DNA from: Promethearchaeota archaeon | Lineage (GTDB): Archaea; Asgardarchaeota; Lokiarchaeia; Sigyniarchaeales; SOKP01 | NCBI GenBank assembly: GCA_048941265.1 | Contig: JBHLNT010000048.1 | Location: 1 to 26,283, forward strand | Direction: 5' to 3' | DNA length: 26,283 nt | Shown: piece by piece, positions 3,096 to 26,283 of the stretch | Numbering within the stretch: position 1 is the first letter of the stretch | How the letters are laid out: each line of letters opens with the position of its first letter | Position numbers and translations under genes: made by a program | Notes under the pieces: generated by a model | Databases searched by the model: none | The model's input: only the letters and a program-made list of their open reading frames with translations | Told to the model about the DNA's origin: nothing

Positions 3096-3132
3096 TTTAA
3101 TTATTAATGCAGGTTCCTTAAATATATTATAA

Positions 3133-7654: not shown

Positions 7655-7860
7655 AACAATCTATTTTAATGAAAAAGAGTCCAATTTATATGGATTCTTT
7701 TAAATAAACAAAATATCAATCAAAATGCCATTTATTTATACAAAGAAAAAATGTCAAATCAATTTTAGTTTATAAAATCAAATTATAATCTTTTAAAGCA
7801 ATAGACTTTTTCTATCAATATAAACTCGATGTTTTTAAATTCTTAAGGTAAATAGGAGAC

Positions 7861-9360: not shown

Positions 9361-9397
9361 ATAAAAAGAGCTAATATTAAAATTGGTTAAATGAAAT

Positions 9398-9823
9398 TTA
9401 ACTATCTTTTTTAAGATTTATATATTCAAAAACATCATTAAAATCTGATAAATCAAATGGTTTTGTTATAAACCCATCTGCTTTAGTCTCTAAAGTTTTT
9501 ATAGAAATTTCAGATTGAGATGTTCCAGTCAAATAATAGACAAGAATATCTTTATGTTTTTCACTTGATTTAATATTTTTACAAAATTCATATCCATTGA
9601 TATCGGGCATATTTACATCTAGAAATATTAATCTTGGCTTGTTATTATTTAATTCATTCATCGCACTTGGATAATCTCTCACAGCATTACATTTATACCC
9701 TTTCAATGTAAACATCTTAGTAAGTAACTCAATTATATACTTACTATCGTCAACTATTAAAATATCGTAAGGAGCTTTATTTAGGCTATTTTTAAAAGTC
9801 AACTTTCTCACAAATCTATTCAT
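9398..9823 (-). CDS. Single-domain response regulator receiver (CheY-like)
   Basis: ILIVDD, FLDVNMPDINGYE (phospho-Asp), LTG, KPF motifs; no output domain. Confidence 0.92.
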   Translation of the reverse strand: MNRFVRKLTFKNSLNKAPYDILIVDDSKYIIELLTKMFTLKGYKCNAVRDYPSAMNELNNNKPRLIFLDVNMPDINGYEFCKNIKSSEKHKDILVYYLTGTSQSEISIKTLETKADGFITKPFDLSDFNDVFEYINLKKDS

Positions 9824-9855
9824 TCTATCAAATTCATATTTCTAGCTTAATGATT

Positions 9856-9867
9856 CTTATTTAAATT
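9856..9867 (-). promoter_or_regulatory. Putative TATA element AATTTAAATAAG of the receiver gene
   Basis: Lies 32 nt upstream of ATG 9823; an identical 12-mer is at 11042-11053. Confidence 0.55.
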
Positions 9868-9941
9868 TGAGTTTTTGAAAAATATTATTAAGACACACTA
9901 TTGATAATAGCCTAAAAAAGTCCAAAAAATGATTAAAATAA

Positions 9942-11009: not shown

Positions 11010-11014
11010 TGTTA

Positions 11015-11053
11015 ATCACCTAACGTATTCAATCATATATCCTTATTTAAATT
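11015..11053 (-). promoter_or_regulatory. TATA element (11042-11053) and SD-like AGGTGAT (11015-11021) upstream of the polyprenyl synthase
   Basis: Minus strand reads AATTTAAATAAG-N20-AGGTGAT-TAACA-ATA. Confidence 0.6.
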
Positions 11054-11183
11054 CTGCTTTCTAAAAAAAAGATTGGTTTTTGCATTATTTAATTATTTAA
11101 AAATATTCAAATTAAATCCAAATTTATCGAATTTATTAATAAGATTCACACATAGAAGCATAATAAAAGCAATTGAGTAAAAA

Positions 11184-13046
11184 ATGAGAAATGAAAAATT
11201 TGGCAAAATTTTAGAAGTTAATCTCGAGAGTAAAACTTTTGACGAGAAAAATATATACAGGGATGATGTTAAAACTTTTTTAGGAGGTCCTGGATTTGCA
11301 ATTGATTATTTAATGAAGAAAAAAGTATTTAAATTTGATCCTATAAGTGAGCATAATCCTTTAATTTTAATGACAGGGTTGCTAACAGGCACTTCATTTC
11401 CATGCTCAGGTTTTTACTCTGTATCAGCGAGATCGCCATTAACCAACATTTATGGAGAAGGTTTATCAGGTGGTTTTTTCGGAGCAGAATTAAGAAAGAC
11501 CTTAAATGGAATTATTATTGAAAATAAAGCAGAGTCTCCCGTGTATTTGAAAATAGAAGATGATCACTATGAATTGAAAGATGCTTCTGATCTATGGAGA
11601 TTAACTACAGGGATGGTCATACAAAATTTACGATCTGAATTAGGAAAAGAATATAAAGTCACATGTATTGGACCTTCCGGGGAACAAATGATACCTTTAG
11701 CTTCTATAATCAATGATCACTTTAGAGCAGTTGGTAGAACAGGAATGGGTGCAGTTATGGGCTCAAAAAACTTAAAAGCCATAGCAGTAAAGAGTTCTAA
11801 AAAGATCGATTATTTTGATGAAGAAAAATTCAACAAAATTTCAAAATCAATATTTTTATCATTTAAACAATCTGCCATGGCAGATGTTTTAAAGAATTTT
11901 GGGACTAATAATATTGATTATTTTGAAAGACTGGCAGATGTACCTCACAAAAATTGGACTTTATCTAAATGGAGAGGAGTCAATGAAATATCTGGTTCTG
12001 TAGTGCTAGAAAGATTACACGTAAAAAATAGACCTTGCTATTTATGTCCTTTTAGTTGTGGACGAGAAATTGAAATAAAGGAAGGGCCTTATAAGATAAA
12101 AGATGCTGCTTGTTCTGAATACGAAACTACAGCGGCATTTGGATCTATGTGTTTAATCTCAGATGTAGAAGCAATAGCTTATATGAATCATCTTTGTAAC
12201 ACCATGGGAGTCGATACCATATCTGCAGGGTGCACAATAGCTTTTGCGATGGATTGTTATGAGAAAGGTATTTTAACCCAAAATGAGATTGGTTTTCCTT
12301 TAGAATGGGGGAATGCCAATACGGCAATCAAACTTTTAAATTTAATGTGCAAAAAAGAAGGAATTGGAAAAATTTTAAGCAATGGTTCTCGAAAGGCTTC
12401 TAAAATAATAGGAAAAGGCTCAGAGGAATTCCTAACTGAAATTAAAGGTTTAGAGGCTCCAATGCATGATCCACGTGCTATATTTCCATTGGGCTTACAA
12501 TATGCTACTTCTAATCGTGGTGCATGTCATCTAAGAGGTTTTGCAAATGATTTATATTCGGGATTTACCGGTTTTAATGAAACTTTAAAAATAACTAAAG
12601 AAAAACCAATCCGGGAAAGAACAATAGATAATCCAAAATTCGCGAGGGATGTTGCGATTTCCCAAAATTTATCAGAAATAAATAATGCATTAGGAATTTG
12701 TCGTCAAACAATTTCTTCAGGTTCTCAAATTGTAGAAAAACTGCTTGATTTAATAGTTGATGAAATCTATTTTTTAACAGAAATTAGGTTATCACTACCA
12801 GAGTTAATGGAAATTGGAGAAAGGATCTTCAATTTAAAACGTGTCTTTAATAATAGATGTGGAATTACGAAAAATGACGATAGAATTCCTCCAAGATTAA
12901 AATTTCCATTAGAAAAGGGTAGAGTAAAGGATAAAGTGCTAACTATTGATTTAATGCTAGAAGAATACTATAAATTTAGAGTTTGGGATGAAAATGGCGT
13001 ACCTACAAAGAACAAATTAATTGAACTGAAAATAGATGGTTATTAA
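11184..13046 (+). CDS. aor: Tungsten-dependent aldehyde:ferredoxin oxidoreductase family protein
   Basis: SPLT, GG.FG.EL, CIGPSGE, GRTGMGAVMGSKNLKAI, CYLCPFSC (4Fe-4S), EYET, G.DTIS, DPR, RGACH, distal LGIC, YY..R.WD..G.P motifs. Confidence 0.93.
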   Translation: MRNEKFGKILEVNLESKTFDEKNIYRDDVKTFLGGPGFAIDYLMKKKVFKFDPISEHNPLILMTGLLTGTSFPCSGFYSVSARSPLTNIYGEGLSGGFFGAELRKTLNGIIIENKAESPVYLKIEDDHYELKDASDLWRLTTGMVIQNLRSELGKEYKVTCIGPSGEQMIPLASIINDHFRAVGRTGMGAVMGSKNLKAIAVKSSKKIDYFDEEKFNKISKSIFLSFKQSAMADVLKNFGTNNIDYFERLADVPHKNWTLSKWRGVNEISGSVVLERLHVKNRPCYLCPFSCGREIEIKEGPYKIKDAACSEYETTAAFGSMCLISDVEAIAYMNHLCNTMGVDTISAGCTIAFAMDCYEKGILTQNEIGFPLEWGNANTAIKLLNLMCKKEGIGKILSNGSRKASKIIGKGSEEFLTEIKGLEAPMHDPRAIFPLGLQYATSNRGACHLRGFANDLYSGFTGFNETLKITKEKPIRERTIDNPKFARDVAISQNLSEINNALGICRQTISSGSQIVEKLLDLIVDEIYFLTEIRLSLPELMEIGERIFNLKRVFNNRCGITKNDDRIPPRLKFPLEKGRVKDKVLTIDLMLEEYYKFRVWDENGVPTKNKLIELKIDGY

Positions 13047-13070
13047 AAATAAAAAACGAAAAATAGTTAT

Positions 13071-14456
13071 TTATTGTAATTCTTTAGCTAATTTTTCATT
13101 TAGCACTCTTACTTGATTTTTTACTTCTTCTAATCTAGCACCTGTTAATGGATAAAGATACAGGAAAAACATACCTAATGCTATAAAAACTATCGGCACG
13201 ACACCTAGTAAAATTCTGAGTCCTAATTCACCGAGTGGTGTTATTGTTGATGGACTCACGTTTTCCCGATTTATTTGAAAGACTGTAAGGACTATACCCA
13301 ATACGAGCCAACTAATAGCGTTTGAAGATTTTACGATAACGCCCGAGACACCATTAAAGATTCCCTCCCTTCGTTCATTTGTTTTTGTATGATCTTCATC
13401 TATAACGTCACTTAATAAAACTGTAGGAAAAATCATTAAACCACCTAAGCCAAATCCCGCAATCAAAAGAACTATCAACATAGTAGTAGCGTTATAAACA
13501 AGAAATATTAATGGAAACGTCAAACAAAAACACAGCATAGATATAAACAATGCGGAACGCGTTCCCTTTTTCTCTGCTATTTTTATCCAAACATATAATC
13601 CGGGAATAACAACGCAAAAAATAAGAAGCATTTGAATAGCCCATTCAGAGGAACCCATACCTAAAACTCCTTCAAAAAATAACGGAAGCCCTGAAAGCAC
13701 AACTGAATAAGAAAGTTGTAATAGAAATTGAACAAGAATAAAACAAACAAAGCTCCTACTTTTCAAAGAGATCCTCATTGATTTTAAAAAACCTATTTTA
13801 TTCTCCTTGATTGTTTGGTATTCTTTTCGCTCCTTTATGAAGATTAATGTTGGTAGCATAGTCAAAGCTGTAACCAAACCGAGAATTAACCCCATTAATG
13901 AAAAACCGAACATAGGATCACTAAAAGATCCTGCTATTAAAGGAGCAATAGCAAGTCCGAGAATTAATCCTATTACACCAAAAATCTCTTTAAATCTTGA
14001 GATAGCTAATCGTTCATTTTGATCTAAGGTCAATTCGGGGTACAAAGCAAACCAAAGAGTAATTACCATAGTTACAAAAGTTTCGTATAAGACCAGCATT
14101 GTTATCAAATAAATAGTGCATATTAGGGGGTCATTTATCGGAGGTGTATAAATTAAATAAGAGCAGATTACTAAAGGTACCAAACCGAATGCAATGAATG
14201 GTTTTCTTCTGCCCCAGCGACTTCTTGTAATATCTGAAATATGACCGATTAGTGGTTCATTAAGTGCATCCCATATTCCATACACCAATAATATTAAACT
14301 AATTCCAAGAGGAGACAGTGGTACTCCAAGATATAGAAAGTAATAAGCATAAAGAAGAAGGATAGATGCCTGCCCAATTGCTAGACTCCCAACATTAGCC
14401 ACTGCCCATGATATTTTCTTTCCAGTTGGTACATGATCTTCACTCATAATCATCAC
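13071..14456 (-). CDS. MFS transporter, glycoside-pentoside-hexuronide (MelB-like) family
   Basis: WDALNEPLIGHISD.TRSRWGRRKPF, PELT....ER, DVIDED.....RREG motifs; about 12 TM segments. Start is GTG 14456 or a nearby ATG. Confidence 0.92.
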   Translation of the reverse strand: MMIMSEDHVPTGKKISWAVANVGSLAIGQASILLLYAYYFLYLGVPLSPLGISLILLVYGIWDALNEPLIGHISDITRSRWGRRKPFIAFGLVPLVICSYLIYTPPINDPLICTIYLITMLVLYETFVTMVITLWFALYPELTLDQNERLAISRFKEIFGVIGLILGLAIAPLIAGSFSDPMFGFSLMGLILGLVTALTMLPTLIFIKERKEYQTIKENKIGFLKSMRISLKSRSFVCFILVQFLLQLSYSVVLSGLPLFFEGVLGMGSSEWAIQMLLIFCVVIPGLYVWIKIAEKKGTRSALFISMLCFCLTFPLIFLVYNATTMLIVLLIAGFGLGGLMIFPTVLLSDVIDEDHTKTNERREGIFNGVSGVIVKSSNAISWLVLGIVLTVFQINRENVSPSTITPLGELGLRILLGVVPIVFIALGMFFLYLYPLTGARLEEVKNQVRVLNEKLAKELQ

Positions 14457-14476
14457 TTAGTAAAAAATAGAAATAA

Positions 14477-14517
14477 TAATATGTAAAAAGTTAAAAGGCT
14501 TTAAAATTTACATATTA
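14477..14517. promoter_or_regulatory. 11-bp inverted repeat over the GPH transporter promoter region (candidate operator)
   Basis: TAATATGTAAA-N19-TTTACATATTA, perfect arms. Confidence 0.45.
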
Positions 14518-14679
14518 AACTTAACCACAATATTAAGTTAAATAAAAGGTTATAAATTAATAGATTATCACCGATTTCTGAAATAATCTTGAATTTTTTG
14601 TATGCAATTAAAATAAATTATCAAAAATTTATGAGATCATTATGGATTTCCCTATAATCCATCATTTTTATCTTACTAA

Positions 14680-16194
14680 TTAATTTTTTCTATTTCTTTT
14701 CTTTTTATTCCTCTTCTTTTGATTTTTAATAAATGACTTTTTAATTATATTAATCGAAATGTGGGCATTTAACCATGAGGTCATTCTTATTGGATTCAGC
14801 ATAAATAATAAACCGCGTGTTCTAAGGATTTTTAAGGAGATTCCCCTCAATTTATATAAAGTTCTAATTTGCCTAAAAGAGTAATATAGCAGTTCCTGTA
14901 ATTCTTTTGGGGTTAATCGGTAAGTTCTAATTACAGGATTAGTAAATGTATATTTAGACCAATCTTTAGTGATGATTAATTTTTTTTCCTCTAACTCTTT
15001 CGTAAGTTCGGTACCCGGAATTGGAGTTAATATATTGGAAGCGAGAATATCCACATCAATTTTTTGTATCAATTTTATCTCATCTATTATCTCTTTTTTT
15101 GTCGCGTTTAAATCAGAGCCAATTATGATAGATCCCTGGATGATTATATTATTATCGTTTAATATTTTAAGTGCTTTTAAGATTTTATTAAATGTTAACC
15201 CTTTTTTCATTTCTCTAAGAGTTTGCTCATTAACACTTTCAATTCCAATTTCGACTCCCCAAAATCCTGCTTCAGCCATTTTTTTTACCATTTGAGGAGA
15301 TTTTACTATGGAATCTGCTCGTACTTGAGCAAGAAATTTAAAATCATTCATTTCTTTTTTTGTTTTACACTCAATTATTTGTTCACAAAGCCTTTCAATT
15401 CTTATTGTATCAGCCGTAAAATTATCATCGACAAAAAAAATATCTGTAATTCTTCGGTTTTGTGAAATCATTTTTAATTCATTTATTATTTTTTCAACTG
15501 GTCGTGGTCTCCATAATCCTTTATTAAAAATAGGTGTGTAACAAAACTTACAGTGATGAGGACAGCCTCGTGAAGTTTGTAGTGTTTCAAATCTTAAATT
15601 TACTATCCTATATTTATTATTTTTTGTGAGATTTCTAGCAGGATATCTAATGTTTCCAAAATCTTTAATTATCGCCCTATCGGGATTATGTATGATTTTC
15701 CCATTAGATTTGTAAGAAATTCCCTTAACATTTTCAGGAGTTCCTTTCAGGATTAATTCTCTAAATGTTAATTCTCCCTCTCCTCTAACAATAATATCAA
15801 TTTCATTTACCTTTAAAGTTTCTTCTGTTTCAACCGTAGGATGCCGACCTCCAAGTACAACTAAGCAATTTTGATTAATCTCTTTTGTTATTTTTGCAAT
15901 ATTATAACAAATATTAATTACAGCAGAGATAAAAACTGTAATCCCTACTACATCTGGATTGAATTTTTTTATCTTTTTCTTTATTTGTTTATTATCCAAA
16001 TTATTTACTGTTGCATCAAGTATTTCCACTTCAACATCTAAATCGACTATATAACTCGCTATAAAGGTTAAATTTAATGGTGGTGTATCAAAACGCGTAA
16101 AATGAGTGGCAGTACTAATCGCACGTGAATTCGGTTTAATTAATAAGATCTTCTTCCATTTGAGATCTTTTTGAGTAGGATGTTCAATTTGCAT
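14680..16194 (-). CDS. Cobalamin-binding radical SAM protein
   Basis: N-terminal B12-binding-like domain (PPLNL, PDVVGIT, GGRHPT, GEGE); SRGCPHHCKFC (CxxxCxxC); FVDDNF; GIES; TPIPGT. Confidence 0.92.
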   Translation of the reverse strand: MQIEHPTQKDLKWKKILLIKPNSRAISTATHFTRFDTPPLNLTFIASYIVDLDVEVEILDATVNNLDNKQIKKKIKKFNPDVVGITVFISAVINICYNIAKITKEINQNCLVVLGGRHPTVETEETLKVNEIDIIVRGEGELTFRELILKGTPENVKGISYKSNGKIIHNPDRAIIKDFGNIRYPARNLTKNNKYRIVNLRFETLQTSRGCPHHCKFCYTPIFNKGLWRPRPVEKIINELKMISQNRRITDIFFVDDNFTADTIRIERLCEQIIECKTKKEMNDFKFLAQVRADSIVKSPQMVKKMAEAGFWGVEIGIESVNEQTLREMKKGLTFNKILKALKILNDNNIIIQGSIIIGSDLNATKKEIIDEIKLIQKIDVDILASNILTPIPGTELTKELEEKKLIITKDWSKYTFTNPVIRTYRLTPKELQELLYYSFRQIRTLYKLRGISLKILRTRGLLFMLNPIRMTSWLNAHISINIIKKSFIKNQKKRNKKKRNRKN

Positions 16195-16346
16195 ATAAAT
16201 TAATTTTCACATCTTTTAAGTTTAAAATATATTGAATTTGCACTATTTTGTAAACTAATTTGAAAATTAATAGCCTAATATATAAAAATTTATCCCATTA
16301 TCAAAATATTTTAAACGAAATATTTTTATAAAAAAAATTTAATATT

Positions 16347-17240
16347 TTAAGAATTTCTGAGATACTCTCGAATTTTTCGGTAGCCAATTATGTTTATATC
16401 GTGGTTTTCAACACATTCTTTTAGACGTGGATCTATAAACGCTTTATAATCTTGATCTCGCCAATTTGCTGAGTCCGGCGTTATTGCTTCTAATTCAGGA
16501 CTCATTTTTGCGGGATGAAATAAGAAATGTGTTAAACCTGGTTTTATTTCTGCCACACGTTTGCAATAATAATTAACTTTATCAGGGTAATCTCCAGTTG
16601 TATCTATAATCATATAATCCAATAATGGAGCACCACTTTCTTCAATTTTTGAAAACATCTTAATAATGGCGTCAGCAGAATCTCCTAATCCTATCTCAAT
16701 TAACATTTCCCGATTAACTCTTGGTAAAAAGGCAGATATCTTGAACTCTCGAGCCATTTTCAAATAGATTGGAAGAAATTTGGGATCCATAACTGTTCCC
16801 ATATGGGCGTCAATGTGAGTAATAGATATACCATTATCTAAAGCCATTTGAATTTGGGCCCGCATTTCTAGTTCAGCAGCCGCAACGGTTACATTCGAAA
16901 TGGCTTCCTCTGATGTACGCCAAAGGCATTTTTCTGAATCCAATAATCCTGATTTGAGATCTACAGAACTTAAAGCACGCCACCGATACAAATCATATTC
17001 ACAGGTAAAAGTTAAATGAATGCCTATGTCATATTTGGGTTTAGCTCTACAAATAGATGCTACTTCTAAAAACCAAGGGGCAGGGACAAGGATAGATCCA
17101 CAACTTGCAATTCCAAAATCCAAACATTCAAAAGAAGCTACATTTGAAGCATGAGAGAACCCCATATCATCAATATGGAATATGACGACTTTATCAGAAG
17201 CATCAAAACCAAGGTTTTCAATAAACGATCGATTTTTCAT
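16347..17240 (-). CDS. ChbG/HpnK/YdjC family carbohydrate deacetylase
   Basis: HIDDMG, GIHLT, THIDAHMG, FHP motifs; SD-like AGGGGA upstream. Confidence 0.88.
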   Translation of the reverse strand: MKNRSFIENLGFDASDKVVIFHIDDMGFSHASNVASFECLDFGIASCGSILVPAPWFLEVASICRAKPKYDIGIHLTFTCEYDLYRWRALSSVDLKSGLLDSEKCLWRTSEEAISNVTVAAAELEMRAQIQMALDNGISITHIDAHMGTVMDPKFLPIYLKMAREFKISAFLPRVNREMLIEIGLGDSADAIIKMFSKIEESGAPLLDYMIIDTTGDYPDKVNYYCKRVAEIKPGLTHFLFHPAKMSPELEAITPDSANWRDQDYKAFIDPRLKECVENHDINIIGYRKIREYLRNS

Positions 17241-17295
17241 CAGAAATCCCCTATTAACATTTCATTATTAATTAATCATATTAGAATTACTAAAA

Positions 17296-17327
17296 TAAAA
17301 GAAGATAAAAATTTATATCTTCTTTTA
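17296..17327. repeat. 12-bp perfect inverted repeat upstream of the deacetylase gene
   Basis: TAAAAGAAGATA-N8-TATCTTCTTTTA. Confidence 0.7.
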
Positions 17328-17728
17328 ATAATTGTTTTTCTTTATAATAGATAAAATTCCTTACATAAAATGCGATAACACTATATTTCGAATAGCTTGG
17401 ACGAGTTGCAATTTTAATTTTAAGAGATTCTAATGTATATTGTGGATGATCGTTTAATGGAGACTCCCAAATACCGTATCTTCTTACTTTTATTGAATTT
17501 ATTAAAGTTAAACATAAATTTGGGGAAATTTAAGGGAATTAATTGAAATTAGAAAAGCTTAGTTTGAAAAATAAAATTGTTTCAACTTAAATTTCAAAAT
17601 TTCAGTTAAATTTATAGTATCATAAAATTCAAAATAACATTTTAATAATTTATAACCACCTTTTTTTAATACCAACTGATATATTTCAATTTTAGAACAA
17701 GTAATTAAATTATTAAAAATGGTGCTTA

Positions 17729-19114
17729 ATGCAAAATAATACACTTCTCAATGAAAAAAGCAATAATATGTTTATTTATTTTATTGCAGCAGTATCTGGA
17801 ATAAGTGGTATGCTATTTGGGTATGATACGGGAGTCATATCTGGCGCAATTCTTTTTATCAGATCAGAATTTAATTTATCTCCCTTTTTAACTGGATTAG
17901 TTGTTAGTGCTGTATTGATAGGTGCTGTTATAGGAGCGTTTTTAGGGGGATATATGGCAGAAAATTATGGCAGAAAGAAAGTAATTATTTTTGCTGCCAT
18001 TATTTTCATCTTTGGTGCTATTTTTACAGCCATAACACCAGATATAATCTTTTTAATTTTTGGGAGGATTATCGTTGGTATTGCAATTGGTATTGCGTCG
18101 TTTACAGCACCGTTATATATCTCAGAAGCATCTCCCCCCCATATTCGGGGAGCGTTAGTTTCGTTTAATCAATTAGCTATTACCATTGGGATCGTAATTT
18201 CTTATTTAGTTGATTTTTCTTTAGCTCCAATTCAAGGATGGCGTTATATGTTTGGTTTAGCTGTGATTCCCGGTGCAATATTACTAATAGGTATGTTTTT
18301 TCTCCCCGAAAGTCCTAGATGGTTAGTGCATCATGGAGATATAAAAGACGGACGAAAAGTATTGCAGCGTATAAGAGATAATACAAATATTGAAGTCGAA
18401 TTAAATGAAATTCAAACTAGTTTAGAACAAGAGAAAGGGGGTAGATCTGAATTATTGAATCCAAAAAACAAACCCGCATTAATAATTGGTATAGCTTTAG
18501 CGATATTCCAACAAGTCACAGGTATTAACACTGTAATATATTATGCTCCTATAATCTTTCAATATGCGGGATTCAAATCATCATCAGCAGCAATTATTGC
18601 GACAATAGGCGTTGGACTTGTAAATGTTGGAATGACTATTGTTTCTATTAAATTACTAGACCGAGTTGGACGCCGACCTTTACTTTTGGTTGGTTTAGCG
18701 GGGATGTCTGCAACTTTGATATTGCTTGGAATTATTTTCTTTTTACCGAGTCTAATATCTCTTATAGGTCCATTAGCTGCCATTAGCCTTATGCTTTACG
18801 TTGCGTTCTTTGCAATTGGGTTAGGACCTGTATTTTGGTTATTAATCTCAGAGATATATCCACTAAAAATACGAGGAACTGCAATGAGTATTGTAACTGA
18901 GGCAAATTGGGGAGCAAATTTGGTAATCGCATTAACTTTTCTTTTATTAATTCAATCCATAGGGAAGTCTGGTACTTTTTGGCTGTATGCAGGAGTAGGA
19001 ATAATGGCATTTATCTTTACATTTTATTATGTACCAGAAACTAAAAATCAAACTTTAGAAGAAATTGAAGAACATTGGCGGAAAGGAAAACATCCTCTAG
19101 AATTAGGAAAATAA
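17729..19114 (+). CDS. Sugar porter family MFS transporter (GalP/XylE-like)
   Basis: LFGYDTGVISGA, YGRK, YISE...RG, PESPRWL, QQVTGINTVIYYAP, DRVGRRPLLL, SEIYP, PETK motifs. Confidence 0.95.
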   Translation: MQNNTLLNEKSNNMFIYFIAAVSGISGMLFGYDTGVISGAILFIRSEFNLSPFLTGLVVSAVLIGAVIGAFLGGYMAENYGRKKVIIFAAIIFIFGAIFTAITPDIIFLIFGRIIVGIAIGIASFTAPLYISEASPPHIRGALVSFNQLAITIGIVISYLVDFSLAPIQGWRYMFGLAVIPGAILLIGMFFLPESPRWLVHHGDIKDGRKVLQRIRDNTNIEVELNEIQTSLEQEKGGRSELLNPKNKPALIIGIALAIFQQVTGINTVIYYAPIIFQYAGFKSSSAAIIATIGVGLVNVGMTIVSIKLLDRVGRRPLLLVGLAGMSATLILLGIIFFLPSLISLIGPLAAISLMLYVAFFAIGLGPVFWLLISEIYPLKIRGTAMSIVTEANWGANLVIALTFLLLIQSIGKSGTFWLYAGVGIMAFIFTFYYVPETKNQTLEEIEEHWRKGKHPLELGK

Positions 19115-19125
19115 AGTGATAGAAA

Positions 19126-21561
19126 ATGGAAAAGTTAAAAATTGATAATAATCCCCCTGGTTATCCAGGAGTAAATCCTAGTTGGAGTATAAGCTCTAAA
19201 GATGGAGTAGGCACTGCTAATTCAATAGGTAATAGACTCTGGTTTACAATTTCAAAAGGAATTATCAATGAAATTTATTATCCAAGAATAGATCAAGCAA
19301 ATATTAAAGATATGCAGTTTCTCATCTCAAGTGAACCAGACATATTTGAAGATGAGAAAAAACTTTGCACACATCAAATATTACCAATAAAACAAGGTGT
19401 TCCAGCATTTAATATTACTAATAAATCAATAAATGGTATATGTGAAATAAATAAAATTGTCTTGACTGATCCAAGGAGGGAAGTATTAATCCAAAAAGTT
19501 CAATTTAAACCTCTCAAAGGAGTATTAAGTGATTATCATTTATATGTAATTTTAACTCCTCATATTAAAAATTGTGGATTTGGTAATAATGGATGGATGG
19601 GGGATTATAAGGGGATCCCAATGTTGTTCGCTCAACGCGATGATGTATCTCTTGCGCTTGCTTGTTCGATACCTTTTATTAATATGAGTTGTGGTTATGT
19701 TGGTTTTAGTGATGGATGGCAAGATATCAGTAAAAATAAAAGATTGACTAAATGTTATTCCAAAGCTATTGATGGAAATATTGCTCTAACTGGTGAAATT
19801 GATCTGTCAATTTCAAAGGGCGAATTTATTATAGTCTTAGCTTTTGGAAATAATGCTGCAGAAGCAGGACAATTAGCACGCACTACATTAATTAAAAATT
19901 TTGACCAAATGTTGTCTGAATTTAAAAAATCTTGGGAAAAATTTCAAAAGAAGTGTTTAAATTTAAGAAACTTAGGTGAAAAAGAAATTGATATATACAG
20001 GATAAGTACTTCAGTTCTGAAAACGCATATGGATAAGCGTTTTAGTGATGGCATAATTGCGAGTCTTTCAATACCATGGGGTTTTTCAAAAGGAGATAAT
20101 GATTTGGGAGGTTATCACTTAATATGGCCACGAGATTTGGTTGAGATTGCTGGTGGTTTACTAGCCGCAGGAGATACTTCTTCTGCACGCCAGATTCTCC
20201 TCTATCTTATGAGTACTCAAGAAGCAGATGGACATTGGCCTCAAAATATGTGGCTTGACGGAACAAGTTATTGGCAAGGAATACAAATGGATGAGACGGC
20301 CTTTCCTATATTGCTTGCTAATGCTCTTAAGCAAAATAATGAATTATATGATTTAGATATATGGCCCATGGTGAAGCAAGCAGCAAGCTTCTTGGTATGT
20401 AATGGTCCTGTGTCTCAGGAAGACCGTTGGGAGGAGGATGCAGGATATTCCCCTTTCACTCTTGCTGTTGAAATTTCAGCCCTTTTAGCTGCTGCTGAAT
20501 TTGCTGAAGAAGCTGGGGAACATCAAATCGCAAAATTCTTAACCGAAACTGCTGATATGTGGAATTCTAAGATTGAGCAATGGACTTATATCAAAAATAC
20601 TAAAATTTCAAAAAAATTAAATATCGAGGGCTACTATGTTAGAATCGGCCCTAAAAATACAGCAGATGCAGCATCGCCACTAAATGGTTATGTTCCAATC
20701 AAAAATAAACCACCCAACCAAAGTAAAGCTTTGTTTGAATATATCGTTAGCCCCGATGCATTAGCGCTAGTGAGATTTGGATTACGAAGTGCTAATGATC
20801 CACGTATTATTAATACTGTTAAAGTCATTGATTCTTTACTAAAAACAGAAACAAAAACTGGTCCTGTTTGGTATCGATATAATCAAGATGGGTATGGTGA
20901 GCATGAAAATGGTGATCCTTTTGATGGTACGGGGATTGGTCGAGGTTGGCCTTTATTGGTAGGAGAACGTGCACATTATGAATTAGCAAGAGGAAATATC
21001 TCAGAAGCAAAATTCTTATGTAAAGTAATAGAAAGACAAACGGGTCCAGGAGGATTAATTCCAGAACAAATCTGGGATTCAGAAGATATACCTGAAAAAG
21101 ATCTCTTTAATGGGCATCCAACAGGATCTGCTATGCCCTTGGTATGGGCTCATGCTGAATATATAAAATTATTGCATTCTATCCATAAAGGAAGTGTTTT
21201 TGACATGCCAAAACAGACATTTAAACGTTATATTACAGGAGATATCTCATCAAATCTTTCAAAATGGAGTTTTAATCATAAAAGTCGCCAGATTGCATTC
21301 GGTAAACAATTAAGAATCGAACTATTATCTCCAGCAATAATCCATTGGACAATAGACGATTGGGCTTCAAGTCAAGAGCTAAAAACAATTGATTCTGAAT
21401 TAGGAATTCATTACGGTGATCTCCCTATTAGTAATCTTGCTGAAGGCATAAAAATAATCTTTACATTTTATTGGATAAATTCAGAAAATTGGGAAAATAA
21501 AAATTTTGAAGTTGTAATTAAAAAATCAAAACAAAAAGAGCTTATTATGGAAACATTGTGA
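19126..21561 (+). CDS. Glucan 1,4-alpha-glucosidase / glucoamylase (GH15 with glucodextranase-like N-terminal domain)
   Basis: K.GVGTA, EIYYP, ASLSIPWG, GGYHLIWPRD, QMDET, DRWEE (acid), RYNQDGYG, GRGWPLL.GER, PEQIWD (base), SAMPLVWAHAEY motifs; no obvious signal peptide. Confidence 0.94.
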   Translation: MEKLKIDNNPPGYPGVNPSWSISSKDGVGTANSIGNRLWFTISKGIINEIYYPRIDQANIKDMQFLISSEPDIFEDEKKLCTHQILPIKQGVPAFNITNKSINGICEINKIVLTDPRREVLIQKVQFKPLKGVLSDYHLYVILTPHIKNCGFGNNGWMGDYKGIPMLFAQRDDVSLALACSIPFINMSCGYVGFSDGWQDISKNKRLTKCYSKAIDGNIALTGEIDLSISKGEFIIVLAFGNNAAEAGQLARTTLIKNFDQMLSEFKKSWEKFQKKCLNLRNLGEKEIDIYRISTSVLKTHMDKRFSDGIIASLSIPWGFSKGDNDLGGYHLIWPRDLVEIAGGLLAAGDTSSARQILLYLMSTQEADGHWPQNMWLDGTSYWQGIQMDETAFPILLANALKQNNELYDLDIWPMVKQAASFLVCNGPVSQEDRWEEDAGYSPFTLAVEISALLAAAEFAEEAGEHQIAKFLTETADMWNSKIEQWTYIKNTKISKKLNIEGYYVRIGPKNTADAASPLNGYVPIKNKPPNQSKALFEYIVSPDALALVRFGLRSANDPRIINTVKVIDSLLKTETKTGPVWYRYNQDGYGEHENGDPFDGTGIGRGWPLLVGERAHYELARGNISEAKFLCKVIERQTGPGGLIPEQIWDSEDIPEKDLFNGHPTGSAMPLVWAHAEYIKLLHSIHKGSVFDMPKQTFKRYITGDISSNLSKWSFNHKSRQIAFGKQLRIELLSPAIIHWTIDDWASSQELKTIDSELGIHYGDLPISNLAEGIKIIFTFYWINSENWENKNFEVVIKKSKQKELIMETL

Positions 21562-21569
21562 AAAAAATA

Positions 21570-23240
21570 TTAGAATTTAAATATTGCTCCTTCAGCCGCA
21601 GAAGAGACGAGCATTTTGTATTTTAATAGAGCTCTGCTTTTGATAATCCTTTCAAATGGTTTCCATTGCGTGAATCGTTCTTGAATCTCAGTATCCGAAA
21701 TATCTACTTCAATTTTTCTTGCTGGTATGTCAATTCTAATTCTATCACCATTTTGTACTACTGCAATAGGACCACCTATATATGCTTCTGGGCTCACATG
21801 GCCAATACAAGGTCCTGATGTAGCACCTGAAAAACGACCATCTGTAACTAAAGCTACGCGATCTAAATTCTGTTTTAGCATAAGCATGGCAGTAACTGCT
21901 AATAATTCTGGCATTCCAGGTCCTCCCTTAGGTCCTTCATATCTAATTATTAACGCTGAACCATTTTCTACAATATTTTGCGAAATTGCATCAATTACTT
22001 CTTGTTCAGAATTGAAACATAAAGCAGGGCCCTCAAAAGTTAACATATTTTTATCCTTAATAGCAGATTGTTTTACTACAGCACCTTGAGGTGCTAAATT
22101 TCCCTTTAATACCACAGTGCCTCCTTTTGGATAAATAGGATTGTCTAGAGGTCTAATCACATTATCATCTAATACATTCATTCTCCTTATTTGCTTAGCA
22201 ATGGTTTTTCCTGAAACTGTAAGACAATCTAAATTAAGAAAATCTTTCAATCTATTTAATACTGCAGGAATTCCTCCTGCTTTATAAAGGTCTACTATGC
22301 CATATTCTCCCGATGGAGAAACATTGACGATTGTTGGAATTTTCTCACTGTATTCATTGAACATTTCTAAATCAAAATCAATACCCCTTTCATGTGCAAT
22401 TGCTGGAAGATGCAGTGCTGAATTTGTAGATCCTCCGATTGCCACATCGACCATCACGGCGTTTTCAAAAGATTTCTGAGTAATTATTTTAGATGGAGTT
22501 AGGTCTTGTTTCAATATTTCAATAATTTGTCTTCCAGAATTTTTTGCAATTAGGTATTTCATTCTTGTCATAGCAGGAGTTGTAGCTGCATTAGGTAATG
22601 TCATTCCAAATGCTTCCATCAAGCATTGTATAGTATTTGCCGTCCCCATAACCTCACATGCTCCATATGTGGCACAGCTTATGCATTTTAGTTTATGATC
22701 GAGATCTTCATAATTTCCTTGTTCAATTCCCACATAATCAGGAGTAAATCTTACTTCATAAAAACTCGGTCCTCCTGGGACACAAATAGTTGGAATATCT
22801 AATCTTATAGCTGCCATCAAAATAGCAGGATTAATTTTATCGCATCCTGATAATGTGACCATTGCGTCTAATCTATGAGCTTCCACCATTAATTCAATTG
22901 AATCTGCAATAACTTCCCTCTGTGGTAGAATATGGTGCATCCCCTCGTTGCCATTAGCCCATCCATCGCACGGACCAACAGTACAAAATTCAAATGGAAT
23001 ACCACCTGCCTCAGCTATACCTAGTTTAACAGCTTCAGCTAAATCCTTTAAATGTTTATGTCCCGGATTAAGTTCATTCCATGTGTTAACTATGCCAATA
23101 AAAGGTTTATTATAAATATCTTTATCTTCTAAACCCAAACTTTCAATTATACCTAAAGTAACATAATTGAATGGTGTTTTTTTTATTCCTTCAAAAATGG
23201 TATTGCTTCTTTTCTTTAAACTACTTTTTTTATCAACCAT
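21570..23240 (-). CDS. IlvD/Edd family dehydratase (dihydroxy-acid or sugar-acid dehydratase)
   Basis: NPGH.HL, CDG, GCDK, GAC..MGTANT, GGSTN..LHL.AIA, GNLAP.GAVVK, YEGPKGGPGMPE, TDGRFSGA, GHVSPEA motifs. Confidence 0.93.
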   Translation of the reverse strand: MVDKKSSLKKRSNTIFEGIKKTPFNYVTLGIIESLGLEDKDIYNKPFIGIVNTWNELNPGHKHLKDLAEAVKLGIAEAGGIPFEFCTVGPCDGWANGNEGMHHILPQREVIADSIELMVEAHRLDAMVTLSGCDKINPAILMAAIRLDIPTICVPGGPSFYEVRFTPDYVGIEQGNYEDLDHKLKCISCATYGACEVMGTANTIQCLMEAFGMTLPNAATTPAMTRMKYLIAKNSGRQIIEILKQDLTPSKIITQKSFENAVMVDVAIGGSTNSALHLPAIAHERGIDFDLEMFNEYSEKIPTIVNVSPSGEYGIVDLYKAGGIPAVLNRLKDFLNLDCLTVSGKTIAKQIRRMNVLDDNVIRPLDNPIYPKGGTVVLKGNLAPQGAVVKQSAIKDKNMLTFEGPALCFNSEQEVIDAISQNIVENGSALIIRYEGPKGGPGMPELLAVTAMLMLKQNLDRVALVTDGRFSGATSGPCIGHVSPEAYIGGPIAVVQNGDRIRIDIPARKIEVDISDTEIQERFTQWKPFERIIKSRALLKYKMLVSSAAEGAIFKF

Positions 23241-23249
23241 TTTTATCTC

Positions 23250-23293
23250 TTATTCTCTTATGAAAATCAAGCTTATTTTATATGAGGGAATAA
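23250..23293. promoter_or_regulatory. Long imperfect inverted repeat in the divergent dehydratase/RraA promoter region
   Basis: TTATTCTCTTAT (23250-23261) against ATGAGGGAATAA (23282-23293), 10/12 matched; inner AAAAT/ATTTT pair. Confidence 0.45.
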
Positions 23294-23354
23294 TCAAATT
23301 AATATCATTTTAAAAATTTTCTTTAGTATATTCTAAACGATACTTGATTATGTC

Positions 23355-24035
23355 GTGAGAGATATGGATAAGAAAAAATTAGAATCTTTATTAAATGAAT
23401 ACTCTAAACTCTACACACCAGCTGTTTCTGATGCTATTGATGAATTAGGACTTGAACCGGGATTTATAGATGCGGGGATAAGGCCTATGTGGAATGGTGC
23501 TAGAATGATGGGGCTTGCAGGAACGATGAAAATGGTACTTTCTGATGAACCACTTGATAGGGATGTGATTGCTCGCATGATTAAGTTCATTAAGCTAGTT
23601 CCAAATTTTCCTATTATATGTATAGACATGAGCGGCGAAATGATCGCAGCTGGGTTAGGACAGAGTACTAGTAGAATTCTACAAGGTTTAGGATTTAGAG
23701 GAGGACTTGTGGATGGTCCAGTCCGAGATATTCCACAAGTTTCTGATTTAAAATTTCCAATATTTGCTCGAGGTATTATATGTTCTTCAATTCGCAGCCG
23801 AATGATTATTGATATGGATTTAGTAATGCATCCAATAAAGTGTGGGGGAAGAACAATAAATCCTGGAGATTTTATATTTGGTGATATCAATGGTGTTGTG
23901 ATAATAAATTCATCTAAAATTGAGGTTGTATTGGAAAAAGCAAAAGAAATTATTTCTACCGATAAGTGGTGGTTTGAACAACTCGAAAAAGGACGCAGTC
24001 CTATTGATATTGAAAAAGAGAGGGAGTTACCTTAG
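23355..24035 (+). CDS. RraA family / HMG-CHA aldolase-like protein
   Basis: T.AVSDA.D, G.A.T, G.LVDGPVRD, FPIFARG, I.PGDFIFGDINGVVII motifs. Start is GTG 23355 or ATG 23364. Confidence 0.88.
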   Translation: MRDMDKKKLESLLNEYSKLYTPAVSDAIDELGLEPGFIDAGIRPMWNGARMMGLAGTMKMVLSDEPLDRDVIARMIKFIKLVPNFPIICIDMSGEMIAAGLGQSTSRILQGLGFRGGLVDGPVRDIPQVSDLKFPIFARGIICSSIRSRMIIDMDLVMHPIKCGGRTINPGDFIFGDINGVVIINSSKIEVVLEKAKEIISTDKWWFEQLEKGRSPIDIEKERELP

Positions 24036-24067
24036 AAATAGAGCATGCTTTTAAAACATACTAATCC

Positions 24068-26283
24068 TTAAAGTTTTAAATTTTGGATTTTCCAAGCACC
24101 TATTATTGATGTTTTATTCCTTAATTCTTTTATTACGTTAAAATTGAAATCTATTTCTTTTAAACTATTGTCAATCAATGTTCCTTCTATTGTAATTTTC
24201 TTTATTTCGTTACTTGGATTTAATATCCTTAAAAAAGAACCATTATCTCGTCTCCATAGATTAATTAAGGAAATCTCGGGATTTATGGAGATCCATGAAT
24301 CAGATTTTTTCACATAATCGTGTTTTCCTTGAATAGTAGTCCCTAATAATTTGAATTTATATGTATTTACTTGCTGATAAGCCGTGAAAAAATTTTTATC
24401 GTGTAGTATTGATATTGAAAATTCGTATTTCCCCTTTTTCTTTATTAAATTGCGAAATTCAAAATTGTTACGATTAATCATAAATTGCTGGCTATTCTTT
24501 TGAATATAAAGGATGCTTTTATCATCTCCCACTAACCATAGAAAGTCTAAAGTTTGAATATTTGATCTTTTTGTTTCTTCAATTCCAAATGGATAGTTTA
24601 TTAGAGATTCTAAAATTTTAAAGGAAGGAATAACTATAATTTCTTCCAAAAACTCAGAATTTAAAACATACTCTAATCTGTTAACTTCCTTATATTGATG
24701 AATCTCAATAGTGAAAGTTTTATTTCGAATTTCGCCTTGAATAATTATTTTTTTCTCAATTTCATTTTGAACTTGAGTAATTAAGGATAAAGTATAATCA
24801 TATGACGAGCCTAATTTTAGTCTATAAACCTCGTGATTTTTAAACCTTATTTCAATTGTTTGATTATCCTCCAAGATTATTATATCATAAAGAAAATTAT
24901 GATCTGAATCATATCTTGTTTGATTTTTTTTAATTAAGGAATAGATCTTATATCCCATTGATGGAATGTTGGGAATGAATTTTATTGTAGAATCCTGATA
25001 GATAAAATCCAATGATTCTCCCTTTTCATCAACCAATACTCTTTTAGAAGCATTTTTTAATTGCAACGGAACAAAGACTATATCCTGCCGAGTATAGATT
25101 GTTGGATTTAGGATGAATATATCAAAACAATTATTTTCTTTTATCTCTGAGTTTATCGTAAGAATATCAATTATTTTTTTTAAGCTCTTATTTATAAAAC
25201 TATCACATTCATTAATGATCTGTCTTTGAATTTTAATACTTAAATCGGAGATCGTGGTTTTTTCAGCAGATATCTCTAATTTTTCATATTCTTTCTTACT
25301 CAACTGCTGAGCAGAATAATCCCCAGGTTTAACGTAAGGTACAGCATAATTATCATGGGCTTGAGCAACTAGTAGTTTTTTCCATAAGTCATCTAATAGA
25401 GAATCATTAGAATCTTCATTCAATCGACCTAAAATGCAATTAATTATCTCAGATGTAATTAACGCAGCTTCACATCTTTTATTGTTTAAAAATAATTCAC
25501 TTCGAATAAAAATGTATTCTCCTAATGAAAATTCATCTCTGCTATATCTAAATTCTCCATCTGTTTTGATAAGATCAAATATCTCCGAGCAAGAAACAAA
25601 TTTTCCAAATATTTCAGAGTATGATGATAATCGCCAAACGTCCTCCTGAAAAGGTAATGGATTAACAAAATCCTCTATTGATGAGAAAATAAGATGTTTC
25701 ATAAAGGGACGGGAGACAGCTTGAAATAATAACTCAGGAAGTTCTTTAAAGAAAGTTCCATGCCAATATTCTCCATTAAAGATGCCAGATTGATCAGTTA
25801 TAGTCGTGATTCTTGAATTATCTAATCCTACCCAAGTAATTTTCCCTGAATTGGTAGATGGACATGTACCTAATAATCTTGTTCTAAGAGAGCAAAATTC
25901 TATGTTAAAATTTTTTAGGATCTGAGGAATCTGAGGATGAAGTGAAACTTCTGAACAATAATAATTATTGCAACTTAATCCTAAATGATTTAATACCTTT
26001 AATCCAAATTCAAATTGTTTAATATTTGACTCCTCACCAATAATTAAATTGTAAGGCTGCGAATATGAAGGATTAATAATTTCAAAGCGCCCTTTGTTAA
26101 ATAAGTCTAAGAATTGCGCCATTTCTTTAGGAAAGTGATATTTTAACCATTCAAAACAACATATTGCGATTTCAATATCATAAGGCATATTGGTTTCAAT
26201 AGCCATTTTCATTCTATCTATTAAACGATCTAAGGCAAATTTGGGTGAATCAAATTCACAAAAACCAATATCATTTATTATAA
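24068..26283 (-). CDS. Divergent GH38 (alpha-mannosidase)-like glycoside hydrolase, probably 5'-truncated by the window edge
   Basis: Frame is open from the edge (IINDIGFCEFDSPKFALDRLIDR precedes the track's Met). Motifs GEESNIKQF..G, HPQIPQIL, W.GLD.SRI, LL.AQAHD, NP..Y.R, IPSMGY, LRILNP. Confidence 0.7.
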   Translation of the reverse strand, partial: IINDIGFCEFDSPKFALDRLIDRMKMAIETNMPYDIEIAICCFEWLKYHFPKEMAQFLDLFNKGRFEIINPSYSQPYNLIIGEESNIKQFEFGLKVLNHLGLSCNNYYCSEVSLHPQIPQILKNFNIEFCSLRTRLLGTCPSTNSGKITWVGLDNSRITTITDQSGIFNGEYWHGTFFKELPELLFQAVSRPFMKHLIFSSIEDFVNPLPFQEDVWRLSSYSEIFGKFVSCSEIFDLIKTDGEFRYSRDEFSLGEYIFIRSELFLNNKRCEAALITSEIINCILGRLNEDSNDSLLDDLWKKLLVAQAHDNYAVPYVKPGDYSAQQLSKKEYEKLEISAEKTTISDLSIKIQRQIINECDSFINKSLKKIIDILTINSEIKENNCFDIFILNPTIYTRQDIVFVPLQLKNASKRVLVDEKGESLDFIYQDSTIKFIPNIPSMGYKIYSLIKKNQTRYDSDHNFLYDIIILEDNQTIEIRFKNHEVYRLKLGSSYDYTLSLITQVQNEIEKKIIIQGEIRNKTFTIEIHQYKEVNRLEYVLNSEFLEEIIVIPSFKILESLINYPFGIEETKRSNIQTLDFLWLVGDDKSILYIQKNSQQFMINRNNFEFRNLIKKKGKYEFSISILHDKNFFTAYQQVNTYKFKLLGTTIQGKHDYVKKSDSWISINPEISLINLWRRDNGSFLRILNPSNEIKKITIEGTLIDNSLKEIDFNFNVIKELRNKTSIIGAWKIQNLKL

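Follow-up and report, generated by a model that had tools for sequence, protein, structure and literature searches.

Whether a dehydratase, an RraA-like protein, an aldehyde:ferredoxin oxidoreductase (AOR) and several carbohydrate-related proteins, all encoded close together in an Asgard archaeon, serve a common route of sugar-acid breakdown or are neighbors without a common function is the question raised by the locus described here. The DNA, contig JBHLNT010000048.1 of Promethearchaeota archaeon assembly GCA_048941265.1, was analyzed over its whole length of 26,283 nucleotides, which we refer to as the window. It is the complete contig C274 of its own assembly (G000), which comprises 5.01 Mb in 361 contigs with a G+C content of 30.5% and is 91% complete; G001 denotes the closest relative genome, and L-numbers denote related loci. 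The nine open reading frames (ORFs) between 11184 and 26283 were scanned with Pfam and NCBIfam. They include a core that recurs in related genomes, and we propose, with a probability of roughly 55%, that this core is a non-phosphorylative sugar-acid catabolic module of one Asgard order, comparable to the yagEFGH genes of Escherichia coli.

Species-representative genomes were searched with the RraA-like protein, which yielded 28 related loci, and all window proteins together with two proteins of L023 were placed on these loci with tblastn. The records carry the labels Promethearchaeota or Promethearchaeia (formerly Lokiarchaeota) or other Asgard labels. An ortholog of the RraA-like protein, 70-87% identical, is present in 26 of the 28 loci, the other two (L030 and L031) holding a short fragment only. 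Directly upstream of it, on the opposite strand, a gene of the IlvD/Edd family was found in every one of the 22 loci that could be tested, a count that leaves out L008, L010, L015 and L028, which have fewer than 600 bases upstream. A gene for a protein resembling glycoside hydrolase family 38 (GH38-like) lies within 5 kb of the RraA-like gene in 23 of 24 testable loci (L010 and L027, whose contigs end too early, are not counted). The AOR ortholog (59-82% identity) is inside the cluster in 15 loci, with 59-88% identity among the cluster copies, and a 16th copy, in G001, is about 11 kb off, with the gene order of the window; the sequences of the remaining 10 loci stop short of the usual place of the AOR gene. 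An MFS_2 transporter of one of two types is found inside the cluster in 15 of the 26 loci, and nine loci have a LarA-like gene (PF09861) that separates AOR from the transporter. The conserved core is AOR, LarA in some loci, MFS_2, IlvD/Edd, RraA-like and GH38-like. An initial annotation, made from the letters of the window, had taken the genes together as a candidate catabolic system, and the linkage that this presupposes is borne out for the core by synteny in the related loci. Because synteny of the core extends to related genomes, chance alone does not account for the grouping. Of 251 genomes sampled from the phylum, 19, belonging to 2 of 30 families, have the RraA-like ortholog group; such a patchy distribution is what would be expected of a peripheral catabolic trait.

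The dehydratase gene (21570-23240, - strand) and the RraA-like gene (23355-24035, + strand) are divergent, with 114 bases between them. Midway in this intergenic region lies an 18-base motif (23292-23309), a candidate shared operator or promoter element, and this motif or a close variant of it, judged by eye, recurs in 11 of 19 orthologous intergenic regions whose remaining sequence has diverged. It has a single exact copy in the 5.0-Mb genome. These data suggest that the motif may be a shared control element of the two genes, possibly a regulator site between two TATA-like boxes. No regulon for it was found in the genome, the sole copy with one mismatch being within a coding frame on contig C99. 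A scan of 10600-26283 for bacterial-type promoters and terminators gave 93 promoter-like sites where 83 were expected and 13 terminator-like sites where 7.6 were expected, and is uninformative for an AT-rich archaeal genome. The sequencing runs listed as containing 16300-26283 are nine DNA runs from four studies, one of them possibly its source, with no RNA run among them. In the closest relative locus the divergent pair is split by a gene of the IS605-type OrfB/TnpB kind with a Cas12f-like TNB domain (L004:8486-9763, - strand).

The dehydratase carries both domains of the IlvD/Edd family at full length (PF00920, 384.4 bits; PF24877, 243.5 bits). In an alignment of 44 rows, C133-D134-K135, C195, E445, D467, R469 and S471 are invariant in all rows, and C91 is kept in all except one or two. 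According to the available text of a review (PMC9795676), the three cysteines are Fe-S ligands, the aspartate and a carboxylated lysine form the Mg site, and the serine is catalytic. This full set of catalytic residues would equally suit an ordinary dihydroxy-acid dehydratase (DHAD) of branched-chain amino acid or pantothenate synthesis, in which case the neighboring genes would be functionally unrelated and their order merely inherited. Several scores point that way. The protein just passes the TIGR00110 model for ilvD (620.4 against a cut-off of 618.15) and also the cut-off of PRK00911, and its nearest solved relatives are true DHADs, the Mycobacterium tuberculosis enzyme scoring 426 bits. 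Solved sugar-acid dehydratases score lower (L-arabinonate 344, galactonate 284 and xylonate 221 bits), and the YjhG/YagF model gives 263 against a cut-off of 808.

Set against these scores is the apparent absence of the pathway that a biosynthetic DHAD would serve. No ilvC was recognized in G000, where the best match to TIGR00465 reaches 22 bits against a cut-off of 226, and none of the genus's 10 genomes (G000 and nine relatives, 64-99% complete) has one above the cut-off. All 14 control genomes were positive in the same search, as were 8 of 31 relatives, G000 being counted among the 31. Acetohydroxyacid synthase (AHAS) was likewise not recognized in G000, in which the best acetolactate-synthase-like match scores 415 bits against a cut-off of 538; four AHAS-like thiamine diphosphate enzymes are encoded there, all of them under the AHAS cut-off. 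In five of the eight ilvC-bearing relatives an IlvD gene adjoins ilvC, and these proteins are 42-45% identical to the window protein, with TIGR00110 scores of 713-733.

A tree of the 44 rows, computed with the quick search of IQ-TREE and carrying SH-aLRT values as its only support, places the five ilvC-adjacent IlvDs with E. coli IlvD (support 98), the copies of the type found on contig C180 of G000 in a second clade (100), and the RraA-linked proteins with two further groups of Asgard paralogs in a third (99), E. coli YjhG being on a very long branch. The initial annotation had staked its reading in part on the phylogeny of the dehydratase and on whether it was the only IlvD of the genome; the protein falls outside the ilvC-linked clade, and it is not the only one, the genome having a second copy on C180 (L003; G000:C180:5005-6675). 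The latter is 43% identical to the window protein, has no ilv neighbors and scores higher as IlvD (685). The clade of the window dehydratase occurs patchily and accompanies the RraA-like gene, and its paralogs are neighbors of genes for aldolases and sugar-acid dehydratases, which argues further against a housekeeping DHAD. Because no ilvC was found in the genus and the ilvC-linked IlvDs form a separate clade, we judge that the window dehydratase is not the branched-chain biosynthetic IlvD, and an ordinary DHAD appears quite improbable here. We propose that it is a sugar-acid (2,3-dihydroxy-acid) dehydratase.

Two side observations concern other members of the family. The C180-type copy is conserved in nearly all relatives though the genus shows no ilvC, and it adjoins a GH130 gene in G001 (L040). 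A fourth, long-branched IlvD/Edd paralog, on contig C6 of G001, is adjoined by a SepSecS gene of selenocysteine synthesis (L041:6438-7793).

The paralogs of the third clade lead to the function of the RraA-like protein. In G001:C3 (L039:1868-13064) and G003:C329 (L063) a cluster was found that contains, in this order, LarA, an esterase, a UxaA-like gene, AOR, an aldolase of the DHDPS family, IlvD/Edd, MFS_2 and DUF2961, its IlvD/Edd being a 59%-identity paralog of the window dehydratase. In G017:C1 the order is UxaA, DHDPS, IlvD/Edd. In G002 and G006 a third IlvD/Edd paralog (68-70%) adjoins genes for UxaA-like sugar-acid dehydratases; in G001 it is near LarA and an MFS gene. The cluster of G001:C3 and G003:C329 is a candidate for a second sugar-acid module in the same genomes. 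Since a DHDPS-fold aldolase holds in this paralogous cluster the place that the RraA-like protein holds in the other, the latter would be the aldolase of its own module, and this is the strongest single argument for that role. Co-duplication of AOR with IlvD/Edd was also considered and finds no support, the AOR of the DHDPS cluster being 36-37% identical to the window AOR and so no closer to it than another AOR paralog of the window's own genome (35%). After DUF2961 the DHDPS cluster continues with genes for a PIG-L deacetylase and a ROK kinase.

The RraA-like protein itself matches PF03737 with 87.4 bits (cut-off 24.5) and is of the long, HMG/CHA-aldolase-like type. Its ORF encodes 226 amino acids, or 223 from the likely start, the ATG at 23364, and the database orthologs also have 223. 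Among solved structures its relatives are 3k4i (E 2.5e-18), 5ir2, which was deposited as a "cellulase", and 3noj, the HMG/CHA aldolase of Pseudomonas putida (E 5e-13). Three residues, R124, D125 and D203, occupy the aligned positions of Arg-123, Asp-124 and Glu-199 in the P. putida enzyme, the third being Asp in place of Glu, and together with G102, the counterpart of Gly-101, they are invariant in 26 of 26 rows. In that aldolase Arg-123 is essential and Asp-124 and Glu-199 bind the metal, as described in the accessible part of PMC5065237. We propose from this alignment that the RraA-like protein may be a metal-dependent class II pyruvate aldolase. It resembles the HMG/CHA aldolases (LigK, GalC, PcmE; 3NOJ) in fold family, length class, essential arginine, adjacent aspartate and second acidic ligand. 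It differs from them in its substrate pocket, in the absence of protocatechuate or gallate genes nearby, in its sugar or sugar-acid context, and in its score of 61 against the 304.5 required by the LigK/PcmE equivalog TIGR02798 (for NF006731, 65.6 against 179). The best 120 database matches are all at least 73% identical to it and, where they are named at all, go only by RraA family protein, regulator of RNase E activity, HMG aldolase and hypothetical protein.

The family takes its name from a protein inhibitor, RraA of E. coli, which acts on RNase E, and the protein of the window might likewise be a regulatory or binding protein and not a pathway enzyme, with the aldolase encoded elsewhere. 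Candidates for the latter exist, since four DHDPS-family matches were found in other parts of the genome. The RNase E-regulator equivalogs are far from reached, however (NF006875, 29.9 against 136; TIGR02998, 22 against 241). The invariance of the Arg-Asp pair and of the acidic ligand, and the length of 223-226 residues, which is that of the aldolase-like type, also speak against a mere regulator, and archaea are not known to have RNase E. A purely regulatory role therefore seems very improbable to us.

Further RraA-like sequences were seen apart from the orthologs. A second RraA-like domain, 31% identical, occurs in a 449-residue frame of the own genome (G000:C70:48463-49026); this frame resembles the hexulose-6-phosphate synthase/RraA-like fusion named by NF005442 and has the same form in several relatives. 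In L022 a second RraA-like paralog lies within the cluster (13004-13675, - strand).

The AOR gene (11184-13046, + strand) encodes both domains of the family (AFOR_N 217.8 bits, AFOR_C 379 bits). Among solved structures it comes closest to strict-sense AORs (9g7j, 365 bits; 1aor, 351 bits), and the CxxCxxxC motif at 285-292 and C506, which we take from the Pyrococcus furiosus enzyme to be the ligands of the 4Fe-4S cluster, are kept in 16 of 16 orthologs. It is not a GAPOR, since it scores 33.8 against the 1300 required by that equivalog. The genome contains 15 AFOR_N matches above the cut-off, so that a single AOR gene near the dehydratase could by itself be due to chance. The cluster AOR is, however, at most 35% identical to the six other AOR-family proteins of at least 400 residues that BLASTP found in its own genome, and by its sequence we regard it as a distinct orthologous line. 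The likeness to the P. furiosus AOR (1AOR) extends to both domains and the cysteine motif; the Asgard gene differs from it in being tied by synteny to a dehydratase-aldolase pair and in being one of 15 paralogs.

The GH38-like gene (24068-26212, - strand, its frame open to 26283) is truncated by the contig end at 26283 and is about 100 N-terminal residues short of its relatives, which have 794-840. By sequence its identity, as given in the initial annotation, is weak. The truncated window copy matches GH38N with 28 bits (cut-off 25), the full-length copy of L004, 77% identical, matches no family at E 1e-5, and the protein of one relative matches GH57 instead, with 26 bits. A profile search of 1.84 billion representatives returned 905 relatives at E <=0.001 and 60 at E <=1e-30. 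When 38 relatives were scanned, most of the more distant ones matched GH38N, GH38C, the alpha-mannosidase middle domain or GH57. A first model, from nine sequences, had a pLDDT of 66, with less than 50 in the catalytic domain, and gave way to one built from 70 sequences for the full-length homologue of 77% identity, with a pLDDT of 95 and a pTM of 0.95. A Foldseek search with this homologue model gave GH38 proteins for all of the top 40 matches, the best of which are alpha-mannosidases (E 1.6e-31, TM 0.64-0.69), and a VIA-align superposition on 2wyh gave Z 26.3 and a root mean square deviation of 3.6 A over 696 residues; GH57 enzymes match only the catalytic domain.

The GH38 architecture of an N-terminal barrel, a helical bundle and C-terminal beta domains is thus seen in the predicted structure, and the GH38-like assignment is upheld by the fold of the homologue. 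Residue E203 (L004 numbering), which is nearly invariant in the 70 relatives, stands in a weak alignment (E 0.11) opposite the aspartate of the WLPDTFG motif of Ams1, which we take to be the GH38 nucleophile. Like the bacterial GH38 alpha-mannosidases of Streptococcus pyogenes (2WYH) and Enterococcus faecalis (5KBP), the modeled protein has the full-length architecture of the family. Unlike them it carries, in the model, an additional helical stretch of some 78 residues at the N-terminus; identity to them is only 11-15%, and the Pfam GH38N match is at threshold or absent.

The fifth member of the core in the window is a transporter of the GPH/MFS_2 family (13071-14456, - strand; MFS_2, 217.9 bits), which scores 175.6 with the gph model TIGR00792, under the cut-off of 231. 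With E. coli YagG it shares 26% identity along almost the whole protein, and the other type of cluster transporter shares 24%.

The LarA-like protein that adjoins AOR in relatives has as its nearest solved relatives the malate racemase Mar2 (148.6 bits) and lactate racemases with a broad spectrum. A role as gluconate or mannonate 2-epimerase was considered and is unsupported, the entry for the gluconate epimerase of Thermotoga maritima reaching only 26.9 bits. The position of LarA next to AOR fits action on an imported hydroxy acid or on an AOR product (lactate or glycerate). The two LarA homologues of the own genome are on contigs C143 and C289, in other contexts. Genes for Ras/Arf-family small GTPases adjoin LarA-like or cluster-flanking genes in two places (L036:9042-9503, on G000:C143, and L025:15688-17187). 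The available portion of PMC7583248 describes LarA homologues that racemize or epimerize 2-hydroxy acids, including D-mannonate to D-gluconate, and that of PMC11770544 gives Asgard archaea as the group in which LarA homologues are most prevalent, with 87.5% of species.

The proximity to malate racemase raises the possibility that the substrates are dicarboxylic hydroxy acids and not aldonic acids. In one version the IlvD/Edd enzyme would convert tartrate to oxaloacetate, which the RraA-like protein would decarboxylate to pyruvate; in another an aldarate, perhaps formed from a uronate by AOR, would be dehydrated to a 5-keto-4-deoxy-aldarate and cleaved to pyruvate and tartronate semialdehyde. 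Apart from the LarA-like protein, support for this comes from the UxaA-like galactarate/altronate dehydratase genes in the paralogous clusters and from the family description of GPH carriers, which include hexuronide carriers. It also comes from the characterized relatives of the RraA-like protein, whose substrates are dicarboxylic 4-hydroxy-2-oxo acids and which decarboxylate oxaloacetate (NCBIfam names, 3noj and, for its accessible part, PMC5065237). Yet the HMG/CHA aldolase's phosphate and substrate pocket is not kept in the window protein, where Arg-195 is replaced by Ile, and Gly-144, Thr-145 and Lys-147 by Ser, Ile and Ser. The tartrate version would moreover leave no role for the conserved AOR and GH38-like genes, and an IlvD/Edd enzyme acting on tartrate or aldarates was not met in the available sections of PMC6692406 or PMC9795676. 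A dicarboxylic module thus appears unlikely.

For the sugar-acid module that we prefer, five steps may be envisaged. The MFS_2/GPH transporter would import a glycoside or a sugar acid and, if the substrate is a glycoside, the GH38-like enzyme would free the monomer. By the chemistry of its family, the IlvD/Edd paralog would turn a 2,3-dihydroxy (sugar) acid into a 2-keto-3-deoxy acid, which the RraA-like class II aldolase may cleave to pyruvate and glyceraldehyde, glycolaldehyde or lactaldehyde. This last step is inferred because the catalytic residues are conserved and a classical aldolase occupies the same place in the paralogous cluster. AOR, again by family chemistry, would oxidize the aldehyde to the acid with reduction of ferredoxin, its coupling to the other steps being suggested by the synteny. 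A gene for a glycerate kinase of the MOFRL type is present on C5 of the own genome.

The arrangement has a close counterpart in yagEFGH of E. coli, a gene group of the CP4-6 prophage for Dahms-type catabolism of D-xylonate. In the annotation of E. coli K-12, yagE encodes 2-dehydro-3-deoxygluconate aldolase, yagF the D-xylonate dehydratase (IlvD/Edd), yagG a putative D-xylonate transporter (GPH) and yagH a putative xylosidase/arabinosidase, and the dehydratase-aldolase pair is repeated in yjhG and yjhH. Aldolase, IlvD/Edd dehydratase, GPH transporter and glycosidase are thus together in both. The Asgard cluster differs in that its aldolase would have the RraA fold (class II, metal-dependent), that of E. 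coli having the DHDPS fold (class I), its dehydratase is on another branch, its hydrolase is GH38-like and not a xylosidase, and AOR lies within the cluster. In the D-xylonate route of E. coli the aldehyde is handled by an NAD-dependent aldehyde dehydrogenase that is encoded elsewhere. By analogy, the RraA-fold aldolase and AOR might be non-homologous stand-ins for the DHDPS-fold aldolase and this dehydrogenase.

A second comparison is with the non-phosphorylative Entner-Doudoroff pathway of Sulfolobus, Thermoplasma and Thermoproteus, in which a sugar acid is likewise converted to a 2-keto-3-deoxy acid and then to pyruvate and glyceraldehyde, the latter being oxidized to glycerate for glycerate kinase. 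The known archaeal pathway uses a gluconate dehydratase of the enolase superfamily and a class I KD(P)G aldolase. The proposed route differs from it in that no glucose dehydrogenase was found in the window and the scanned neighbor ORFs, that its oxidation would be linked to ferredoxin and that its Asgard host is anaerobic. IlvD/Edd enzymes from Sulfolobus and Caulobacter dehydrate D-gluconate, and that of Sulfolobus also acts, slowly, on D-glycerate, as stated in the accessible text of PMC6692406. The same text describes a synthetic cell-free cascade in which one Sulfolobus DHAD carries out both dehydrations.

Such a double use of one dehydratase invites a further version, to which only a slight probability can be given. 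In a kinase-free ferredoxin route, AOR would oxidize both the free aldose and the aldehyde released by the aldolase, and the IlvD/Edd enzyme would dehydrate both the aldonic acid and glycerate. If true, three enzymes would convert a sugar to two pyruvate without ATP, with all electrons passing to ferredoxin for H2-based syntrophy. The absence of a recognized sugar dehydrogenase near the cluster and the separate line formed by the cluster AOR among 15 paralogs would be compatible with this version, doubtful though it is. An AOR-linked glycolytic pathway was reportedly proposed in 1991, to judge from a title cited in PMC2063504, and the kinase-free route would echo that proposal. If true it would also be the natural counterpart of the synthetic one-DHAD cascade (PMC6692406, available text).

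Several observations weigh against the sugar-acid module and have to be set beside those that favor it, among them the DHAD-like scores and structural relatives of the dehydratase and the unkept pocket of the RraA-like protein given above. The closest solved relative of the latter, 3k4i, is an uncharacterized protein, and no NCBIfam cut-off was reached by the RraA-like protein. The tree of the dehydratases was made by a quick method and contains few characterized references (E. coli IlvD, Edd and YjhG). The linkage has its exceptions: the GH38-like gene is absent from L007, the RraA-like gene and the IlvD ortholog are on separate contigs in G017, and no IlvD was seen in G028. LarA is absent from the cluster and the contig of the window, and since the LarA-like protein of the relatives is nearest to a malate racemase it gives no pointer to hexonates. 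No sugar 1-dehydrogenase or lactonase was recognized in the window or the scanned neighbor ORFs, a genome-wide search not having been made, and the genes of the window are on both strands and hence not one operon. The initial annotation had raised these last two caveats itself, as regards a dehydrogenase in the window and the operon, and they hold.

The remaining genes of 11184-26283 were all present as the initial annotation had listed them, apart from one that it had overlooked, a B12-binding radical SAM protein of 504 amino acids (14680-16194, - strand; Pfam B12-binding and Radical_SAM, no NCBIfam cut-off passed). This protein is BchE/HpnJ-like, and its position within the cluster was seen only in the own genome; in G001 the gene is missing at the matching place, where the GPH gene directly abuts YdjC. 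The YdjC-family carbohydrate deacetylase-like protein (16347-17240, - strand; PF04794, 149 bits) had been labeled ChbG. It reaches only the level of the YdjC family and is not called ChbG proper, because it scores 59.9 with the ChbG equivalog NF002559, against a cut-off of 227. YdjC was found in the cluster in the window, L004 and L005 only. A sugar-porter transporter of the major facilitator superfamily (MFS) (17729-19114, + strand; Sugar_tr 433.9 bits; TIGR00879 424 bits, above the cut-off) is followed by a GH15 protein of the glucan 1,4-alpha-glucosidase/glucodextranase type (19126-21561, + strand; Glucodextran_N and Glyco_hydro_15; TIGR01535 746.1 against a cut-off of 741.9), and this pair is common to the window and L004, the closest relative, only. 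Three genes, those for GH15, the sugar porter and the radical SAM protein, are accessory, lineage-specific insertions. The earlier interpretation, in which these carbohydrate genes were joined to a route through a dehydratase, an RraA-fold aldolase and AOR, is thus partly supported by the sequence comparisons: the core of IlvD/Edd, RraA-fold and AOR genes is conserved, and GH15, the sugar porter and YdjC are not conserved parts of the module.

Other genes were seen in or beside the cluster in relatives. Between AOR and IlvD/Edd, L022 has a different B12 radical SAM gene (665 amino acids, 32% identical), and after its GH38-like gene it has an Amidohydro_2 gene and a GH4 gene (17071-19447); the Amidohydro_2 family includes sugar lactonases. 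Downstream of the cluster in L016 (13035-17279) and L023 (15012-19394) are genes for NifH/CbiA-like, CdhC-like and CCG-domain proteins and for a GlcD-like FAD-linked oxidase; the CCG-domain and FAD-linked oxidase proteins could oxidize glycolate or D-lactate, which are possible AOR products. Two records labeled as bacterial, L014 (Nanopelagicaceae bacterium) and P0235 (Deferrimicrobium), contain the Asgard cluster with 75-76% identity; since this matches the identity of Asgard copies, they are probably mis-binned contigs and not cases of transfer.

The first part of the window (1-10649) encodes a coiled-coil protein, a pyridoxal phosphate enzyme, a hexapeptide transferase, a CobW/HypB-like GTPase, a metallo-beta-lactamase, DUF429, an acyltransferase_3, an M20 peptidase, a response regulator and a truncated-looking polyprenyl synthetase. 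Starting with the lactamase gene, they are syntenic in G001 (L061), and no link to the module was seen.

A literature search, which covered papers without their supplements, found no paper that links RraA with Asgard archaea in this sense and none that joins RraA, dehydratase, sugar acid and aldolase. In the available portion of an Asgard phylogeny paper the semi-phosphorylative and non-phosphorylative Entner-Doudoroff pathways (sp/np-ED) are named solely as a figure-legend category (PMC12222021), and in that of a paper on eukaryotic central carbon metabolism Edd/dihydroxy-acid dehydratase is named only in a legend (PMC11976288). From the comparisons made here, the cluster, conserved and patchy in its distribution, is best read as an Asgard version of a pathway type already known. 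If this is true, it would provide the first physiological context for many proteins that are named only "RraA family", and it would be a case of non-homologous replacement of a keto-deoxy-acid aldolase, with the RraA fold in one cluster and the DHDPS fold in its sister cluster of the same genomes. The enzymes may also be of interest for cell-free biocatalysis, where the dehydratase and aldolase steps limit cascades (PMC6692406, accessible text). Models of eukaryote origin depend on what Asgard archaea ferment and on how their reducing power reaches partners. The order concerned is otherwise viewed mainly as one of peptide and amino-acid fermenters, and a conserved, ferredoxin-linked sugar-acid module would give it a concrete and testable carbohydrate route.

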